A stretch of 64,000 nucleotides of DNA. It comes from a virus (lineage: Duplodnaviria; Caudoviricetes). Positions 33,579-62,761 of this stretch are shown in pieces (the stretch's first letter is position 1; every line of letters starts with the position of its first letter). The translations under genes were made by a program, and so were the position numbers. Location: positions 1 to 64,000 of the IMG/VR virus record IMGVR_UViG_3300025708_000007; one strand, 5' to 3'. The notes below the pieces were generated by a model. That model was not told the origin of the DNA and made no database searches. It saw only the letters and a list, made by a program, of their open reading frames with translations.

Positions 33579-33609
33579 TTTGTATTTATGATTTTAAGTG
33601 CTATATTTG
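33579..33609 (+). promoter_or_regulatory. Bacteroidota sigma-A-type promoter of tRNA operon 1
   Basis: TTTG-N19-TATATTTG. Confidence 0.8.
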
Positions 33610-33642
33610 CACTATCATTTTTTAAGATTTATTGCTATAGTT

Positions 33643-33717
33643 ATGGAGAATTTTGTACATATTCAACCCCAGCCACAACAGCATCCACAAGATGGTGAAT
33701 GGGGAACATGTGCTTAA
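33643..33717 (+). CDS. attenuator leader peptide 1 (His/Gln/Pro-rich)
   Basis: MENFVHIQPQPQQHPQDGEWGTCA; upstream of Pro/His/Gln tRNAs. Confidence 0.8.
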   Translation: MENFVHIQPQPQQHPQDGEWGTCA

Positions 33718-33752
33718 TTTTTCGAAGATGAAGTTTTGAGTTAAACATTGTG

Positions 33753-33783
33753 AACCCCATTCTGAAAAGAGTGGGGTTTTTTT
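33753..33783 (+). terminator. attenuator terminator 1
   Basis: AACCCCATTC-TGAAAA-GAGTGGGGTT+T5; 5' arm is also complementary to GAATGGGG (33697-33704). Confidence 0.85.
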
Positions 33784-34756: not shown

Positions 34757-34849
34757 GGTGACAGATATAAAAAACTGCACGAGAAACAGACACGAGTGGG
34801 TTAAGAGTTGTTTTAATACCCGCAATGGTTGCCAGTACCTAATGTCACC
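34757..34849 (+). ncRNA. 93-nt structured element, copy 1
   Basis: 7-bp terminal stem GGTGACA/TGTCACC; core near-identical to 39727..39819. Confidence 0.7.
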
Positions 34850-34854
34850 CAAAT

Positions 34855-34937
34855 TGACCTCTGGCAGAATGGTTATTGCATCGGTCTTTGAAGCCGACAC
34901 CCTTTGTGGTTTACAGGTTCGAGTCCTGTGGGGTCAA
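34855..34937 (+). tRNA. tRNA-Gln(TTG) with long variable arm
   Basis: TCGGT-CTTTGAA-GCCGA; ~14-nt variable region. Confidence 0.75.
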
Positions 34938-39104: not shown

Positions 39105-39135
39105 TTTGTTTATTTTGAAACATTTTTTATCTTTG
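39105..39135 (+). promoter_or_regulatory. Bacteroidota sigma-A-type promoter of tRNA operon 2
   Basis: TTTG-N19-TATCTTTG. Confidence 0.8.
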
Positions 39136-39200
39136 TATCGTATAATTGCAAAACAAATAGTATTTAAATAAAAAGTATTAACAATTAAAATTCAAAACGA

Positions 39201-39296
39201 ATGAAAAGAATGCTCGACATATCAGTAATGGCAGTAGCCTTGAACGCAGTCCTATTATGGGATGCAGTAGAGGATGCGCTATGCAAAGTCGGGTAA
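39201..39296 (+). CDS. attenuator leader peptide 2 (Val/Ala/Leu/Asp/Glu/Trp)
   Basis: MKRMLDISVMAVALNAVLLWDAVEDALCKVG; upstream of Asp/Glu/Val/Leu/Ala/Trp tRNAs. Confidence 0.8.
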   Translation: MKRMLDISVMAVALNAVLLWDAVEDALCKVG

Positions 39297-39333
39297 TTTG
39301 TATTCATATACAACCTCCTTTCTAAATGAAAAG

Positions 39334-39365
39334 ACCCGACTTCCCTACAAGCCGGGTTTTTTTTT
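39334..39365 (+). terminator. attenuator terminator 2
   Basis: ACCCGACTT-CCCTAC-AAGCCGGGT+T run; 5' arm perfectly complementary to AAGTCGGGT (39286-39294). Confidence 0.85.
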
Positions 39366-39474: not shown

Positions 39475-39479
39475 CATAC

Positions 39480-39597
39480 GGTCTTATAAATAATTACCCT
39501 GAGTAAATCGGGTAGCCGATGTACACGGTTTGGAACGATTCGGAAAGCAAGCATGCATTGCTCGATGAGGGGGGGTTCGAATCCCTGTAAGACCGCA
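39480..39597 (+). ncRNA. tRNA-like RNA (acceptor + T-arm, non-tRNA interior)
   Basis: GGTCTTA/TAAGACC stem, GGGTTCGAATCCC, interior hairpins. Confidence 0.55.
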
Positions 39598-39602
39598 ATT
39601 TC

Positions 39603-39726: not shown

Positions 39727-39819
39727 GATGACCGATGTAAAAAACTGCACGAGAAACAGACACGAGTGGGTTAAGAGTTGTTTTAATACCCGCAACGGTT
39801 GCCAGTACCCAAGGTCATC
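39727..39819 (+). ncRNA. 93-nt structured element, copy 2
   Basis: GATGACC/GGTCATC terminal stem with two compensatory changes relative to copy 1. Confidence 0.7.
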
Positions 39820-39824
39820 CAGAT

Positions 39825-39898
39825 GCTGCGTTCGGCAAGATGGTTAAGCCGTAAGACCTTCAATCTTACATGCATGGGTTCGAGTCCCATACGCAGTA
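39825..39898 (+). tRNA. tRNA-Glu(TTC)
   Basis: TAAGA-CCTTCAA-TCTTA. Confidence 0.88.
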
Positions 39899-40013
39899 CA
39901 AGTGAAATCGAAATGTCGTAAGATAGTAGTAGTTAAGTCTACCGATTTTTGTGGTTTTGAGCACGAGACGCTCATGTAATAGGGCATACACTCCCTTTCC
40001 ACCACTTACTTAT

Positions 40014-40085: not shown

Positions 40086-40087
40086 CA

Positions 40088-40165
40088 ATTGGTCGGCTCG
40101 TCTAATTGGTTAGGACATCACCCTTTCACGGTGAAGATTTACGGGTTCGAGTCCCATACGCAATA
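40088..40165 (+). pseudogene. tRNA-Glu(TTC) with disrupted acceptor stem
   Basis: TCACC-CTTTCAC-GGTGA intact; acceptor strands pair poorly. Confidence 0.6.
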
Positions 40166-40262
40166 CAATGTTGAGGTGGTATTACACAGAGAAAAGAAAG
40201 TCTCTGCAGAGAACCTAAAAAATAATGGCTGCATGCGGGTGAAAATCCCGTCAACGTTAAAT

Positions 40263-42070: not shown

Positions 42071-42151
42071 CAAAATTGGTTGGAATTATTCCGTCAATTC
42101 TGTAATAAGAGCGTCAACAGCTACGGCATTAACTCTTTCCAATTTTAACAT

Positions 42152-42232
42152 GACCCCTTGAATTATGCAAAATAGGCACAGCAGACAGGCTTAAACCCTG
42201 ATTCTTTGTGGGTTCGAGTCCCACAGGGGTTA
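42152..42232 (+). tRNA. tRNA-Leu(TAA), atypical D region and short variable loop
   Basis: CAGG-CTTAAAC-CCTG; GACCCCT/AGGGGTT acceptor. Confidence 0.65.
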
Positions 42233-42241
42233 CAAATTTAC

Positions 42242-45121: not shown

Positions 45122-45494
45122 GGGGCAGTTTGGTTTTGACAGCATGCTTGAATGGTATGTAAGCAAGTCGTAGTTTGAGCAACACTACGTAAAAACAGGT
45201 TCAAAACAATAAATGCAGAGGATATAATGTCCATTCCTACTTCTCTAACGAGAGGTCGCTTATTTGTAGAGAGTGCTGAACTCGCAATGGTAGCGTAAGG
45301 AAGCAGCAAACGCAGCAAAAACCTTCCAAATAAACCCATCTCGATGGAACTTGTTATTTTAACAGAGAGATAAGGAAGTAAAATAAAACAGTGGATAAAA
45401 AATAAATGTTTTGCTGATTTAGAAAAATCAGATAAACTTGTAGAAAACGTATTGGGCACATGACTGCACACGGGTTCGAATCCCGTCTGCTCCA
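45122..45494 (+). ncRNA. ssrA: tmRNA
   Basis: 5' GGGGCAGTTTGGTTTTGACAGC, 3' GGGTTCGAATCCCGTCTGCTCCA, G3:U70; resume GCA at 45215 after ATAAAT; tag AEDIMSIPTSLTRGRLFVESAELAMVA* to 45298. Confidence 0.92.
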
Positions 45495-45519
45495 CTAAAA
45501 CATTTAAAACATTGAAATT

Positions 45520-47196: not shown

Positions 47197-47742
47197 GTGA
47201 TGGATAATAAATCATATTCATATTTGTTGGGGCAGTATTTAGGTGACGGCTGTGTTTCTGAAACAAAAAGAACGTATAGATTACGTATTTTTAATGACGT
47301 TAAATATAATCATTTAAATGACTATATATTTCAAACAATACAAAAAATATTTCCAAACAATAAGGTGAATACATGTTTTTATCAAAATCATGTTATTACT
47401 TATGTTTATTCAAATGAAATTCCCAAATTATTTCCACAACACAATCTGGGATTAAAAAAAAATAGAAAAATTCAATTATATGACTGGCAAATAAAAATAT
47501 TGGACTATAAATATTTATTTGCAGGATTGTTGCATTCAGATGGTTGTATTTATTTTGACAGAGGATATAAAATGTGTGTATTTACTAACACTTCATTAGA
47601 CATATTGGACATTTTTAAAGATTGTTGCGATAAATTAAATATTGAATACACCATCAATAAAAATAGGATACAAATAAGAAAAAGAAAATCTAATGATTGG
47701 ATTGAAGAAAATGTTGGTGATAAAAATATAATTAAAATATAA
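47197..47742 (+). CDS. LAGLIDADG-family homing endonuclease
   Basis: two motifs YLLGQYLGDGC and LFAGLLHSDGC. Confidence 0.85.
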   Translation: MMDNKSYSYLLGQYLGDGCVSETKRTYRLRIFNDVKYNHLNDYIFQTIQKIFPNNKVNTCFYQNHVITYVYSNEIPKLFPQHNLGLKKNRKIQLYDWQIKILDYKYLFAGLLHSDGCIYFDRGYKMCVFTNTSLDILDIFKDCCDKLNIEYTINKNRIQIRKRKSNDWIEENVGDKNIIKI

Positions 47743-48712: not shown

Positions 48713-48785
48713 GGCGGGATAGCTCAGTTGGTAGAGCGATGGAGTCATAACCCATAGGTCGTGAGTTCGAATCTCACTCCCGCTA
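48713..48785 (+). tRNA. tRNA-Met(CAT) (elongator; Ile2 not excluded)
   Basis: GGCGGGA acceptor; loop GTCATAA. Confidence 0.88.
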
Positions 48786-48789
48786 CAAA

Positions 48790-48818
48790 TAAAAAAACCC
48801 ATCGAATTCGATGGGTTT
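48790..48818. terminator. terminator ending tRNA operon 2 / convergent genes
   Basis: AAACCCATCGAATTCGATGGGTTT palindrome. Confidence 0.75.
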
Positions 48819-52295: not shown

Positions 52296-53390
52296 ATGAA
52301 GTTAAATTACAAAATATTAGAAAAGGTCGATTGGAAAGTCTTGCAGACTTACATTGATAACAGTCTTATTGTCGCAAATAAGCATCCAGAATATGACATT
52401 TGGATATTGAACTATTCACCAAAAGTTCAATCTAAGAAATTCTGGGATGAATATACTTTATCTGCACGTGGACTCGTTATTGATGCAGAGGGTAATATTG
52501 TTGCACGTCCATATCAGAAGTTCATGAACCTTGAAGAACATGACCCAGCAGACATTGATATGTCTCAGGAATATGAGGTTTTTGAAAAGGTAGATGGGTC
52601 ATTAATCATCCTTTTCTATTACGAACCACGTATGCAATGGATTTTTGCTTCAAGAGGCTCATTCATTTCAGAACAGGCATTGGAAGCACAGAAAATGTTC
52701 AACCACACTGTTCAGGAAAAAATGAGTTCAAAATATACTTATTTGTTTGAAGTCTTATATCCAGAAAACCGTATTGTGGTTGATTATGGTAGCAGAAGGG
52801 AACTTGTGTTACTTGGAAAAATGAACACCACTACGGGTGAAGAATGCCCATACGAATATCTTGTTGACAAATATTCAAAGCATTTTACTGTCGTGAAAAG
52901 AATTGACGTAAGACTCGATAATTTATCCGAATTAAAAAGGCTTGAAGAAGACAACAAGGAAGGGTTCGTGGTGAGATTCAAGAACGGTTTCAGGGTTAAA
53001 GTCAAATTTAACGAATACGTTAGATTGCATGGTATTCTAACAAATGTTTCAAACATAACTGTTTGGGAACATTTGGTGAATAACTACAATTTTGACCAGT
53101 TACTTGACAGAGTGCCAGACGAATTTTATGGTTGGCTACAAAGAGTCGTAGCGTCATTGCAAGGAAAATACGATGAAATTGAAAAAGAATCGTTGAAAGA
53201 ATTCGTGAGAATTTACCACACCAATGGTATTATTGAACGTAAGGATTTTGCAATGGAAGCTTTGAAATCGGACTACCGTTCGATTCTTTTCAAAATGTAC
53301 GACAAAAAACCATATGAATCGATAATCTGGAATATGGTGCGTCCTGTATATAGTAAGCCATTCAAGGATGGTTTCGAATATAGTATATAA
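52296..53390 (+). CDS. ATP-dependent RNA ligase (T4 Rnl1-like)
   Basis: motif I EKVDGS, ARGLV, YLFEVLYPENRIVVDY, EGFVVRF, RVKVKFNEY. Confidence 0.88.
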   Translation: MKLNYKILEKVDWKVLQTYIDNSLIVANKHPEYDIWILNYSPKVQSKKFWDEYTLSARGLVIDAEGNIVARPYQKFMNLEEHDPADIDMSQEYEVFEKVDGSLIILFYYEPRMQWIFASRGSFISEQALEAQKMFNHTVQEKMSSKYTYLFEVLYPENRIVVDYGSRRELVLLGKMNTTTGEECPYEYLVDKYSKHFTVVKRIDVRLDNLSELKRLEEDNKEGFVVRFKNGFRVKVKFNEYVRLHGILTNVSNITVWEHLVNNYNFDQLLDRVPDEFYGWLQRVVASLQGKYDEIEKESLKEFVRIYHTNGIIERKDFAMEALKSDYRSILFKMYDKKPYESIIWNMVRPVYSKPFKDGFEYSI

Positions 53391-54867: not shown

Positions 54868-54895
54868 AAAAATATTGAAAATTTTGTAACATTTA

Positions 54896-54926
54896 TTTGT
54901 TTTTATCGTATTTATCCTTACATTTG
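54896..54926 (+). promoter_or_regulatory. Bacteroidota sigma-A-type promoter of tRNA operon 3
   Basis: TTTG-N19-TACATTTG. Confidence 0.8.
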
Positions 54927-54954
54927 TAACCTCAAACTTTGTAAAAACATTTTT

Positions 54955-55044
54955 ATGATGACTATTTTTGGAACATATTATTACGGTAAAAAATCTTATA
55001 AGAAACAACTTATAGGAATCGGGAATACTATGTCCAAAAATTAA
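54955..55044 (+). CDS. attenuator leader peptide 3 (Tyr/Lys-rich)
   Basis: MMTIFGTYYYGKKSYKKQLIGIGNTMSKN; upstream of Tyr/Lys tRNAs. Confidence 0.85.
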   Translation: MMTIFGTYYYGKKSYKKQLIGIGNTMSKN

Positions 55045-55072
55045 ATGGTTTTGATTTTAATCTGACATGAAC

Positions 55073-55101
55073 AACCCGATTCCGAAAGAGTCGGGTTTTT
55101 T
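55073..55101 (+). terminator. attenuator terminator 3
   Basis: AACCCGATT-CCGAAAG-AGTCGGGTT+T run; CCCGATTCC also pairs with GGAATCGGG (55015-55023). Confidence 0.85.
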
Positions 55102-55113
55102 ATTTTGTATATT

Positions 55114-55195
55114 CGGCAGAATGGTAAGTGGGTGAAATCACAGGTCTGTAAAACCTTCGCCATTGGCTATGGGGGTTCGAATCCCTCTCTGCCGA
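55114..55195 (+). tRNA. tRNA-Tyr(GTA)
   Basis: loop CTGTAAA; long variable arm. Confidence 0.88.
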
Positions 55196-55244
55196 CTGAA
55201 AGAGTTTAGGCATTTTCTGTATCGCTGACTGAAATATCCAAATT

Positions 55245-55318
55245 GACTTCGTATCCGTAGTGGCTTTCGGACTTGACTCTTAATCAAGGATACGTGGGTT
55301 CGAATCCCACCGAGGTCA
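55245..55318 (+). tRNA. tRNA-Lys(CTT)
   Basis: CTTGA-CTCTTAA-TCAAG. Confidence 0.88.
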
Positions 55319-55323
55319 CAAAT

Positions 55324-55406
55324 GGGAGTGCGCTATCGTTGGAGAGATAGGCTTGTCTGTAAAACAAGTGCCATTGGCTGAGTTGGTTCGAATCCTATCG
55401 CTCCCA
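55324..55406 (+). tRNA. tRNA-Tyr(GTA)
   Basis: CTTGT-CTGTAAA-ACAAG; long variable arm. Confidence 0.88.
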
Positions 55407-55413
55407 CAAATTT

Positions 55414-55486
55414 GCGCTTGTAACTCAGTTGGTAGAGTAACGGACCTTTAATCCGTGAGTCGTGGGTTCGACCCCCACCGGGCGCA
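55414..55486 (+). tRNA. tRNA-Lys(TTT), C at position 33
   Basis: ACGGA-CCTTTAA-TCCGT. Confidence 0.82.
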
Positions 55487-55493
55487 CAAATAT

Positions 55494-55567
55494 TCTCCTA
55501 TAGCAAACAGGATGTATTGCCCCGCTCTTTTAAAGCGGTGGGTCTGGTTCGATTCCAGATAGGAGAA
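55494..55567 (+). tRNA. tRNA-Lys(TTT)
   Basis: CCGCT-CTTTTAA-AGCGG. Confidence 0.82.
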
Positions 55568-55655
55568 CAGACAAGCATTGTGTTCATACTAACATTTAAT
55601 TAATGAATATAATGCTTTTTCGTTTTGCAATGTATTTATCATAAAAGTATTTTTT

Positions 55656-56300
55656 ATGTATCATTGCAATAAATGTGATAAAAACTTCGAAAATCGGTAT
55701 TCTTATATAGCACATTGCCGAATTCATTCCAATTATGTAAGACCCAAAAATCCAAATTCAAGACGAAATAAACCACCCAAAACAATATGTATATATTGTG
55801 GTAAAACTTTTCAGAATGGACGTAGTTTAGGTGGACACATGACCCATTGCGAATTAAATCCAAATCATAATCTTATTTTACAAAACATGTCCAAAGCAAG
55901 TCCAAAACGAAAATGGTCAGAAGAAGATAAAAAGAAAATTAGTAGAAGAATGATTGAATTTTTAATGAAAAATCCAGACAAAGTACCATATAAATTAAAT
56001 CATTCAAGTAAAATGAGTTATCCTGAAAGAGTATTTGAAAATGCATTAAAATCAGCAAATATTTCAGGTTGGACATACAATTACCAAAATGGAATTTATT
56101 CATATGACTTTGCGTTTCCAGTTTTGAAAATAGATGTGGAAATTGATGGAAATACACATATCCAAGAAAAGGTGAGAAATATTGATAAACGCAGGGATAA
56201 ATTTAGTACCAATAATGGTTGGATTGTAATTCGTTTTACCGCAAATGAAATTAAAGAAGATGTTTTGAAATGTATAAATACATTAAAAACATTTCTTTAA
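55656..56300 (+). CDS. C2H2 zinc-finger + DUF559/Vsr-like endonuclease
   Basis: CNKC...HCRIH, CIYC...HMTH; YDFAFPVLKIDVEIDGNTH...RDKF. Confidence 0.8.
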   Translation: MYHCNKCDKNFENRYSYIAHCRIHSNYVRPKNPNSRRNKPPKTICIYCGKTFQNGRSLGGHMTHCELNPNHNLILQNMSKASPKRKWSEEDKKKISRRMIEFLMKNPDKVPYKLNHSSKMSYPERVFENALKSANISGWTYNYQNGIYSYDFAFPVLKIDVEIDGNTHIQEKVRNIDKRRDKFSTNNGWIVIRFTANEIKEDVLKCINTLKTFL

Positions 56301-60546: not shown

Positions 60547-60577
60547 TTTGGTATTTATGAAACATTTTATACCTTTG
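60547..60577 (+). promoter_or_regulatory. Bacteroidota sigma-A-type promoter of tRNA operon 4
   Basis: TTTG-N19-TACCTTTG. Confidence 0.8.
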
Positions 60578-60646
60578 CATCGTATTTAGGTAAAAATGAG
60601 TTTATGAAAAAACCTTTTTATTATTAAAAACAAAAAAAATAAAACA

Positions 60647-60781
60647 ATGAAACGAATAGCGTACATATTAGTATCGAGTCTAACGACAACCAGTCGTATT
60701 GGAGAAGGTACATTTTGCTCAGATTTCGGCAGAAATAATATTGCGGATACGGGTTCAGGTTTTATTGACTTAAAAAGATAA
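60647..60781 (+). CDS. attenuator leader peptide 4 (Thr/Ser/Ile/Gly/Phe/Cys/Asn/Arg)
   Basis: MKRIAYILVSSLTTTSRIGEGTFCSDFGRNNIADTGSGFIDLKR. Confidence 0.75.
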   Translation: MKRIAYILVSSLTTTSRIGEGTFCSDFGRNNIADTGSGFIDLKR

Positions 60782-60814
60782 GTAGGTAGTAAAATAAAAC
60801 TGAAATAAAATCAG

Positions 60815-60846
60815 AACCCGGAATCCAAAAAAGTTCCGGGTTTTTT
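60815..60846 (+). terminator. attenuator terminator 4
   Basis: AACCCGGAAT-CCAAAAAA-GTTCCGGGTT+T run; GAACCCG pairs with CGGGTTC (60750-60756). Confidence 0.85.
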
Positions 60847-61359: not shown

Positions 61360-61953
61360 ATGAAAACAAAAGATAGTGTAATTAAACTAAGACTTTCTGG
61401 AAAAAGTTATGGCGAAATAAGTAAAATGCTGAACATTTCTAAACCCACAGTATCCTACCATTGTATAAATGCCGGATTGAATGAACCAATTGATGGTCGT
61501 AAAATATTGAATGAGGCTGAGAAAATTGAACTTAATGAATATTATAAATCACATACTATTTTCGAAACAGCAGAAAAATTTAAGATATCAAGAACAACTG
61601 TTCTTGCAAACACTGAAAATAAGAGACTGGTATTGTGTGAAATTGAAAAAAGAAAAAGAAATTATGAAAAGGTAAAAAATAGGCGACAACGGCTTAAAGA
61701 GATGGGTGTTGAATATTTAGGTGGAAAATGTATGAAATGTGGGTATGATAAATGTATTGCTGCGTTAGAATTTCACCATAGAAACCCAGAAGAAAAAGAA
61801 TTTGGAATATCACGTTATCAAAATTTGAGTTGGTCAAGAATTATTGTTGAATTAGATAAATGTGATTTACTGTGTTCTAATTGTCATAAAGAATTACATT
61901 ATGAGGAACATTGGGATGTATCACCTCTGCCTGATAAGCAGTCGAAAGTGTAG
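61360..61953 (+). CDS. HTH + HNH homing endonuclease
   Basis: CMKCGYDKCIAALEFHHRNP...KCDLLCSNCHKELH. Confidence 0.88.
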   Translation: MKTKDSVIKLRLSGKSYGEISKMLNISKPTVSYHCINAGLNEPIDGRKILNEAEKIELNEYYKSHTIFETAEKFKISRTTVLANTENKRLVLCEIEKRKRNYEKVKNRRQRLKEMGVEYLGGKCMKCGYDKCIAALEFHHRNPEEKEFGISRYQNLSWSRIIVELDKCDLLCSNCHKELHYEEHWDVSPLPDKQSKV

Positions 61954-61989
61954 TTTGGTTGCACGTGGGTTCAAATCCCACCTTCCCAA
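61912..61989 (+). tRNA. tRNA-Ile(GAT)-like, D-arm missing
   Basis: CTGC-CTGATAA-GCAG; GTGGG-TTCAAAT-CCCAC; only 6-8 nt between acceptor and anticodon stem. Confidence 0.5.
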
Positions 61990-62027
61990 CAAACCTTGAC
62001 GAAGGTTTAACGTTGCAACGTTGAAAT

Positions 62028-62506: not shown

Positions 62507-62552
62507 CCGAAACGGTTCGCACTACACGATATGGAGAGTAGGAAGTGCAAAT

Positions 62553-62714
62553 GGGGAGATAGGGTTATTTGGTAGACTCGTCAGTGTGAAAACTGAACTA
62601 CGAAAGTAGGTAGTCCTCATGAGGGTTGTTGTTAACGTGCGCACAATTCTAACAACGCTTCCACTGAATGTGAGTAATGACGAGAGGTTGGTGGTTCAAA
62701 TCCATCTCTCCCCA
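62553..62714 (+). ncRNA. tRNA scaffold carrying a ~100-nt structured insert
   Basis: GGGGAGA/TCTCCCC acceptor, D-arm, T-arm GGTGG-TTCAAAT-CCATC; no 7-nt anticodon loop. Confidence 0.6.
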
Positions 62715-62761
62715 CCGCAACGGTTCGCACTACACGGTGATTAACGAGGAAGTGCAAAATT

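Follow-up and report, generated by a model that had tools for sequence, protein, structure and literature searches.

The window analysed here is a 64,000-nt stretch of phage DNA that opens a contig of 90,967 bp and 33.5% G+C, which carries 50 tRNA genes and a tmRNA gene, all on the + strand. Within the window, an operon of five tRNA genes for tyrosine and lysine is likely gated by a ribosome-mediated (leader-peptide) transcription attenuator. Such a device had been proposed in an earlier note made from the sequence alone. All the features which that note lists are present at the positions it gives, and the proposal is well supported by the anatomy of the locus, by its conservation and by leader composition that follows array content across lineages. 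The last of these, the tracking of array content by leader composition, is the strongest evidence for an attenuator.

Anatomy of the Tyr/Lys leader

The features of the locus and of three related modules in the contig are listed in Table 1. A Bacteroidota-type promoter lies upstream of the leader ORF, which places the leader on the transcript; the ORF starts 28 nt past the -7 element. This distance is 22–40 nt in homologous leaders and 70 nt in one relative. The spacer of the promoter contains GTATTTAT, which occurs at 35 sites on the + strand and 20 sites on the - strand of the contig, compared with an expectation of ~6–7 per strand. Of 23 distinct homologous leaders, 21 have the -7 element and 22 have GTATTTAT in the promoter spacer. 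This phage-wide motif may be a phage-specific promoter element.

Table 1. Coordinates of the Tyr/Lys locus, its gated array and the sibling modules
Feature	Position	Strand	Detail
T4 Rnl1-type RNA ligase gene	52296-53390	+	PF09511, E 1.4e-21
Bacteroidota-type promoter, TTTG-N19-TAnnTTTG	54896-54926	+	same pattern upstream of all four leaders
GTATTTAT	54908-54915		in promoter spacer, between TTTG and TAnnTTTG
Leader ORF	54955-55044	+	29 codons and TAA stop; 4 Tyr and 5 Lys codons
Regulatory codon run YYYGKKSYKK	54976-55005	+	codons 8-17; conserved across relatives
Region 1	54994-55002	+	5' arm of the 1:2 anti-antiterminator hairpin; overlaps Ser-Tyr-Lys codons
Region 2	55009-55023	+	55009-55017 pairs with region 1; 55015-55023 (GGAATCGGG) pairs with region 3
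Region 3	55073-55083	+	terminator 5' arm 55073-55082; partner of region 2 55075-55083 (CCCGATTCC)
Region 4	55088-55097	+	3' arm of terminator hairpin
Intrinsic terminator T tract	55096-55106	+	
tRNA-Tyr(GTA)	55114-55196	+	gated array (55114-55568)
tRNA-Lys(CTT)	55245-55319	+	gated array
tRNA-Tyr(GTA)	55324-55407	+	gated array
tRNA-Lys(TTT), C33	55414-55487	+	gated array
tRNA-Lys(TTT), canonical	55494-55568	+	gated array
Sibling module A	33579-33779	+	promoter; Pro/His/Gln-rich 24-codon leader 33643-33717; terminator 33752-33779
Sibling module B	39105-39359	+	promoter; 31-codon leader 39201-39296; terminator 39332-39359
Sibling module D	60547-60844	+	promoter; 44-codon leader 60647-60781; terminator 60813-60844

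The regulatory run consists of the codons TAT TAT TAC GGT AAA AAA TCT TAT AAG AAA, so that Tyr or Lys accounts for eight of ten consecutive codons. As the earlier note had it, the run lies ahead of GGAATCGGG, both AAA and AAG are present (as are TAT and TAC), and the five downstream tRNAs are those given in Table 1. We compared the leader with all ATG-initiated ORFs of 15–70 codons in the six frames of the whole 91-kb contig (n = 840). It is the only one with seven or more Tyr and Lys residues in a 10-residue window (it has eight), and it directly precedes the contig's only Tyr/Lys array. Over the whole ORF, Tyr and Lys make up 9/28 residues against an expected fraction of 0.14 (binomial p 0.012). 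Stalling on a poly-lysine A tract was considered and rejected, the longest A run in the leader being 6 nt.

Three competing helices can form in the transcript: 1:2, 2:3 (the antiterminator) and 3:4 (the intrinsic terminator). The complementarity between GGAATCGGG, inside the ORF, and CCCGATTCC, which underlies helix 2:3 and had been pointed out before, is exact over 9 nt; a perfect complement of this kind arises in 0.1% of 5000 shuffled sequences (p 0.001). The 9-bp 1:2 hairpin was absent from the earlier note, as were the promoter and the lack of space for a second one ahead of the tRNAs. The terminator hairpin (55073-55097) has 10 pairs and a 5-nt loop and is followed by the T tract. Both the 1:2 hairpin and the terminator were recovered independently in the RNAalifold consensus structure, and compared with 200 dinucleotide shuffles the folding of the whole leader has a z-score of -4.5 and that of the 2:3 segment a z-score of -4.9.

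The first tRNA gene begins 17 nt past the terminator stem. The gap between the T tract and this gene is too short to hold a promoter, and the tRNAs would thus be made only by read-through of the terminator. Computationally, the locus has a small ORF between promoter and terminator, a cluster of sensed codons, mutually exclusive helices placed for a stall, and a terminator directly upstream of the genes with no promoter between, all of which are features of attenuators. It departs from them in one respect: the regulated genes are five tRNAs, not genes for the synthesis, charging or import of amino acids.

Leader codons, array content and conservation

Three other tRNA arrays of the contig are preceded by modules with the same order of elements: promoter, small ORF, in-ORF complement of a terminator arm, terminator and tRNAs. 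The array behind leader A encodes Pro, His, Pro, His, Gln, Gln and Gln, and codons for these amino acids occupy 10/23 positions in the leader (binomial p 1e-5); its complementary arm is 8 nt long (p 0.0056). The array behind leader B begins with Asp, Glu, Val, Leu, Ala and Trp and ends with Met, at a terminator at 48797; its leader has 22/30 own-array codons (binomial p 3e-5) and a 9-nt arm (p 0.0004). The array behind leader D (Thr, Cys, Asn, Phe, Ser, Arg, Gly and Ile) extends past the end of the window, and 30/43 codons of its leader are own-array codons (binomial p 1.6e-4). The four arrays partition the 20 amino acids without overlap, the three siblings accounting for the other 18, and each leader is enriched for the amino acids of its own array and not for those of the others.

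The correspondence holds where tRNAs are grouped differently. The Lak megaphage LR756502.1 (locus L010) has another grouping of amino acids, and each of the four arrays seen there has a matching leader and a terminator. A leader rich in Lys, His and Phe precedes the Phe, His and Lys array, a leader containing SSRSRSS precedes Arg and Ser, and leaders rich in the same residues precede the arrays for Glu, Tyr, Ile, Gly and Ala and for Asn, Leu, Val, Ile and Thr. When leaders and arrays are cross-tabulated in two 4x4 tables, one for the contig and one for this megaphage, the array's own amino acids are the most enriched in 8/8 rows. Arrays have also been re-partitioned in other relatives, with leaders rewritten to match: array D corresponds in L302 and L271 to two arrays, each with a matching leader, and in L284 a QPQPQHH leader stands ahead of Pro, His and Gln. 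Thus, across three groupings, a leader contains Tyr and Lys codons if Tyr and Lys tRNAs lie behind it, and only then.

Homologous leaders were collected in two ways. The first set was drawn from IMG/VR contigs by means of a neighbouring papain-like peptidase gene and a DNA pattern, and yielded 23 distinct Tyr/Lys leaders, including close relatives that are not independent samples. In all 23 the ORF is in the same place ahead of a Tyr/Lys array. The DNA pattern fixes both arms of helix 2:3, so that in this set these arms are invariant by construction and pair-level covariation in the antiterminator is not visible. The second set was anchored on the ribonucleotide reductase (RNR) gene 1.9 kb downstream, which is independent of the leader, and comprises 78 loci. 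These lie on contigs of up to 675 kb, which indicates that the window is a fragment of the genome of a huge phage. In this set of related huge phages, a Tyr/Lys-rich leader is present at 24/24 starts of Tyr/Lys arrays. A DNA search of a phage genome collection returned tRNA-level matches and three Lak-type megaphage records only, with no close relative.

Conservation among relatives extends to the leader, the promoter and the arms but leaves out the ~45 nt that separate region 2 from region 3. Both the 1:2 helix and the terminator show compensatory changes. At the top of the 1:2 hairpin, 18 sequences have a G-C pair and five an A-U pair, with no sequence unpaired; at one position of the terminator stem, 20 sequences have A-U, and C-G, U-A and G-U each occur once. 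In L192, the only member added by a scan with a leader-codon pattern among the matches listed, an A-to-G change in region 3 is matched by a T-to-C change in region 4, and region 2 tolerates it as a G-U pair. The divergent loci L302 and L271 retain the four-region design with entirely different arm sequences, that is, conservation at the level of helices.

In one group of relatives, a codon is deleted in frame within the Tyr/Lys run. In L069 and L112, a 1-nt shift alters the peptide over region 2 but keeps the RNA arm and leaves the Tyr/Lys run in frame; the arm is thus read in another frame and appears to be conserved as RNA. As far as sequence comparison can tell, relatives look as expected if constraint acts on the codons as such and on the arms at the RNA level.

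These observations bear on the view that the ORF encodes a functional micropeptide, the conserved peptide being the point and the RNA helices incidental. Conservation does reach beyond the Tyr and Lys codons, for example to FGT before the run and IGN.MSK after it. However, the codons conserved past the run are those of region 2, and it is there that L069 and L112 change the peptide and keep the arm. The C-termini and stop positions vary, in the divergent members L302 and L307 only the Tyr/Lys run is shared, and the sibling leader peptides are unrelated to one another, each matching its own array. We regard a micropeptide as highly improbable.

A constitutive terminator or insulator, with a small ORF present by chance and the tRNAs made by fixed, leaky read-through, would also account for parts of the layout, given that intrinsic terminators are common between genes here and that small ORFs are plentiful in such AT-rich DNA (840 in the contig). 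It is nonetheless very unlikely: the Tyr/Lys run is unique among these ORFs and immediately precedes the one Tyr/Lys array, a complement inside the ORF to the terminator arm would arise by chance with a probability of 0.001, the leader is found at every one of the 24 independently sampled arrays, and composition follows array content in eight modules from two distant phages.

T-box riboswitches work without translation, by direct binding of uncharged tRNA and the reading of one specifier codon; like the proposed phage switch, they sense the state of a specific tRNA and decide between terminator and antiterminator on that basis. A protein-independent, T-box-like element that binds tRNA without leader translation would suit a location before tRNA-related genes and a terminator/antiterminator choice. 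At gathering score, Rfam models matched only tRNA and tmRNA in 30000-64000, with no T-box. At E values up to 10, the matches in 54870-55125 were at chance level, all far below gathering scores, and again included no T-box; a T-box or other known RNA family was rejected on this ground. Moreover, several amino acids would be sensed through in-frame codon runs, start and stop are conserved, and indels are in frame. In-frame codon runs and indels point to decoding by a ribosome instead of pairing with a single specifier codon, and such a riboswitch is exceedingly improbable.

Several further observations concern the arrays themselves. A palindromic, apparently bidirectional terminator (48797-48816) directly follows tRNA-Met (48713-48786); it marks the end of operon B, so that leader B would gate ~9.5 kb, including the phage-encoded tmRNA (45122-45495) and several protein genes. 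At 73291-73366, 9 kb beyond the window and outside the four attenuated arrays, the contig encodes a tRNA of the amber suppressor type (CTA anticodon). A near-identical stretch of ~75 nt, bordered in both copies by short inverted repeats, is found immediately 5' of tRNA-Gln(TTG) at 34855 (approximately 34770-34845) and immediately 5' of tRNA-Glu(TTC) at 39825 (approximately 39745-39815). Rfam gives no match for it at gathering score; candidates for its nature are an intron-like insert, a processing signal and a small RNA.

T-arm-like and acceptor-like sequences that were not called by ARAGORN lie in the inter-tRNA gaps at 39476-39601, 40087-40262, 42072-42241, 61900-61999 and 62509-62760, and at 40100-40157 and 61912-61989 Rfam gives weak matches to tRNA. 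The number of tRNAs in the arrays, counting interrupted or degenerate ones, is probably higher than the 42 listed. Homing-endonuclease-like genes (47197-47742, 55656-56300, 61360-61953 and other ORFs) are interspersed among the array tRNAs and are of LAGLIDADG, zinc finger plus DUF559 (Vsr-like) and HTH/HNH-like types, which fits the variable array spacing among relatives.

C33 is found on one of the two tRNA-Lys(TTT) copies (55414-55487) and on tRNA-Glu(TTC) at 39825-39899, each of which has a canonical duplicate in the same array. In related huge-phage loci (L236–L311), C33 is present in 69/533 tRNAs, among them Lys, Asn, Arg, Ser, Thr, Gly and other isoacceptors. It could serve to evade anticodon-loop nucleases or be a decoding peculiarity of the lineage.

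Ribosome models and the proposed signal

We infer that the leader is translated and that its translation is coupled to transcription, and likewise which way, and by how much, the switch responds. In the proposed mechanism, transcription would start from the TTTG-N19-TAnnTTTG promoter and a ribosome would load on the 29-codon leader. With Tyr-tRNA and Lys-tRNA plentiful, the ribosome would pass the Tyr/Lys run and cover region 2; behind it, region 1 would re-pair with region 2, leaving region 3 free for region 4, and the resulting 3:4 terminator would end transcription 17 nt before the first tRNA gene. With slow decoding of TAT/TAC or AAA/AAG, the ribosome would stall on the run and cover region 1, so that region 2 would be free to pair with region 3 once the latter is made. 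The terminator would be blocked, and the antiterminated RNA polymerase would continue into the five tRNA genes. The tRNA products would relieve the stall, and this negative feedback would adjust tRNA supply to the demands of decoding.

The ribosome was modelled as a 30-nt unpaired mask in two settings, the full transcript at equilibrium and a transcript cut short ahead of region 4. In the first, the terminator has a probability of 1.0 without a ribosome, 0.00–0.15 with the A site on Y10 to Y15, and again 1.0 from K17 onward; the modelled equilibrium fold thus flips from terminator to antiterminator when the A site is on codons 10–15. On the cut transcript, ribosomes up to K16 allow helix 2:3 to form (0.95–1.0); its probability falls over K17–Q18, and ribosomes from L19 to K28 block it (0.0). 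In all four leaders, the boundary for 2:3 in this model lies close to where the main cluster of regulatory codons ends. For the Tyr/Lys leader, this behaviour accords with the logic of trp-type attenuators.

At the last codon and the stop codon, 2:3 returns to 0.78 in the cut-transcript model. A ribosome at the stop codon leaves region 2, the end of which is 19 nt upstream, uncovered, and termination in the replete state would therefore depend on timing, the 1:2 hairpin or steric exclusion. Equilibrium mask folding reproduced the switch for the Tyr/Lys leader and in part for leader B, and not for A or D. We take the equilibrium failure for A and D as a limit of the model that does not count against these siblings; it is what a kinetic choice would give, though no proof of one.

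The earlier note had gone further and suggested that the Tyr/Lys module is an inducible counter-defence. Any sensor of decoding would respond to tRNA cleavage, which makes counter-defence a possible use of the device. The same switch might then have been selected mainly because an anticodon nuclease that cuts tRNA-Lys or tRNA-Tyr stalls the leader ribosome and so triggers a burst of phage tRNAs, some of them resistant to cleavage. This would refine, rather than replace, the attenuator explanation, and we consider it rather unlikely.

As far as the papers cited here cover it, the background on which the suggestion drew is sound, in that tRNA-Lys is cut by PrrC and repaired by T4 ligase (PMC10264068), and retron-Eco7 PtuAB degrades tRNA-Tyr and PrrC is countered by phage tRNA-Lys (PMC11555353). 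Both tRNAs are documented nuclease targets replaceable by phage tRNAs (PMC11555353; PMC10264068). The locus itself offers two leads for counter-defence, and only leads. An Rnl1-type ligase gene lies 1.5 kb upstream of the promoter, and homologues of 60–73% identity are found 0.1–2.5 kb upstream of the Tyr/Lys leader in 21/21 loci where one was found. In addition, one of the two tRNA-Lys(TTT) copies has C33 in place of the near-universal U33, with the canonical copy adjoining it. With low probability, then, the module may be an infection-time alarm within a sense-and-replace circuit, the C33 tRNA-Lys possibly staying uncut and the ligase resealing what is cut.

Other evidence argues against a dedicated Tyr/Lys counter-defence module, which is unsupported in the form proposed. 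The same architecture gates all four arrays and thereby 20 amino acids, and the pairing of Tyr with Lys is specific to the lineage: in LR756502.1, Tyr is grouped with Glu, Ile, Gly and Ala, and Lys with Phe and His, each behind its own matching leader. C33 is spread over many isoacceptors in this group of phages and is not specific to Lys, and the synteny of the ligase may reflect general collinearity among relatives. Together with its three siblings, the Tyr/Lys attenuator would split the tRNAs for 20 amino acids into four separately sensed operons. Since the siblings cover the other 18 amino acids, the best reading of the four attenuators is a general, demand-driven control of tRNA supply.

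Known attenuators and tRNA supply in huge phages

Leader-peptide attenuators of amino-acid operons include trpL, hisL and pheL of E. coli and Salmonella and the multivalent thrL (Thr/Ile) and ilvL (Ile/Val/Leu), in which two or more amino acids are sensed by one leader. The phage leader shares with them a promoter, an ORF with sensed codons, regions 1–4 forming mutually exclusive helices, and a terminator before the genes. It differs in being phage-borne, in belonging to a set of four leaders that partition 20 amino acids, in having no sequence relationship to them and no Rfam match, and in that the regulated genes are tRNAs instead of enzymes. Accordingly, extra tRNA and not extra amino acid would relieve the signal. 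The pheST (phenylalanyl-tRNA synthetase) operon is controlled by an attenuator with the pheM leader, which is likewise a leader-peptide device on genes of the decoding machinery, but pheST encodes a synthetase.

Caillet et al. (1985) reportedly described an attenuator-like sequence upstream of the E. coli tRNA-Phe gene pheV. This is the nearest precedent beside a tRNA gene that we know of, and unlike the phage leader it is said to lack a terminator. We know of no working attenuator of a tRNA gene. Transcripts of pheV and pheU have been reported to be monocistronic with 3–4 nt leaders (PMC7049720). A search of the full-text literature found no description of a leader-peptide attenuator before tRNA genes of a phage or a cell.

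In Bacteroidota, the likely host phylum, the Bacteroid-trp RNA motif of Weinberg et al. (2017) is said to be a predicted Trp leader-peptide attenuator, which suggests that leader-peptide attenuation operates there. That motif has a single-amino-acid leader before trp genes, and it had no match here in the Rfam scan.

The tRNA-rich region of phage T5 provides a comparison for the function of such arrays, as its strongly expressed tRNA-Tyr defeats retron-Eco7 (PMC11555353). Both in T5 and here, phage tRNA-Tyr and tRNA-Lys could replace depleted host tRNAs. High expression in T5 is reported to come from a strong promoter (PMC11555353), whereas the Tyr/Lys array of the phage studied here would depend on a sensor of decoding.

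Leader text predicts operon content, which aids the annotation of tRNA islands in uncultured megaphages, and the compact, amino-acid-specific sensors could find new use in reporting on tRNA availability. The reasons for which phages carry tRNA genes are debated, and the regulation of these genes is largely unexplored. The giant uncultured phage described here probably makes its Tyr and Lys tRNAs when the corresponding codons are decoded slowly. If this is true, a textbook form of bacterial control would extend to a new class of genes, those of the decoding machinery, and there would be an experimental route to the tRNAs that become limiting in infection, be it through codon-usage mismatch, host shut-off or tRNA-cutting defences. 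Huge phages would then gauge the speed of decoding for each codon family and make tRNAs on demand.
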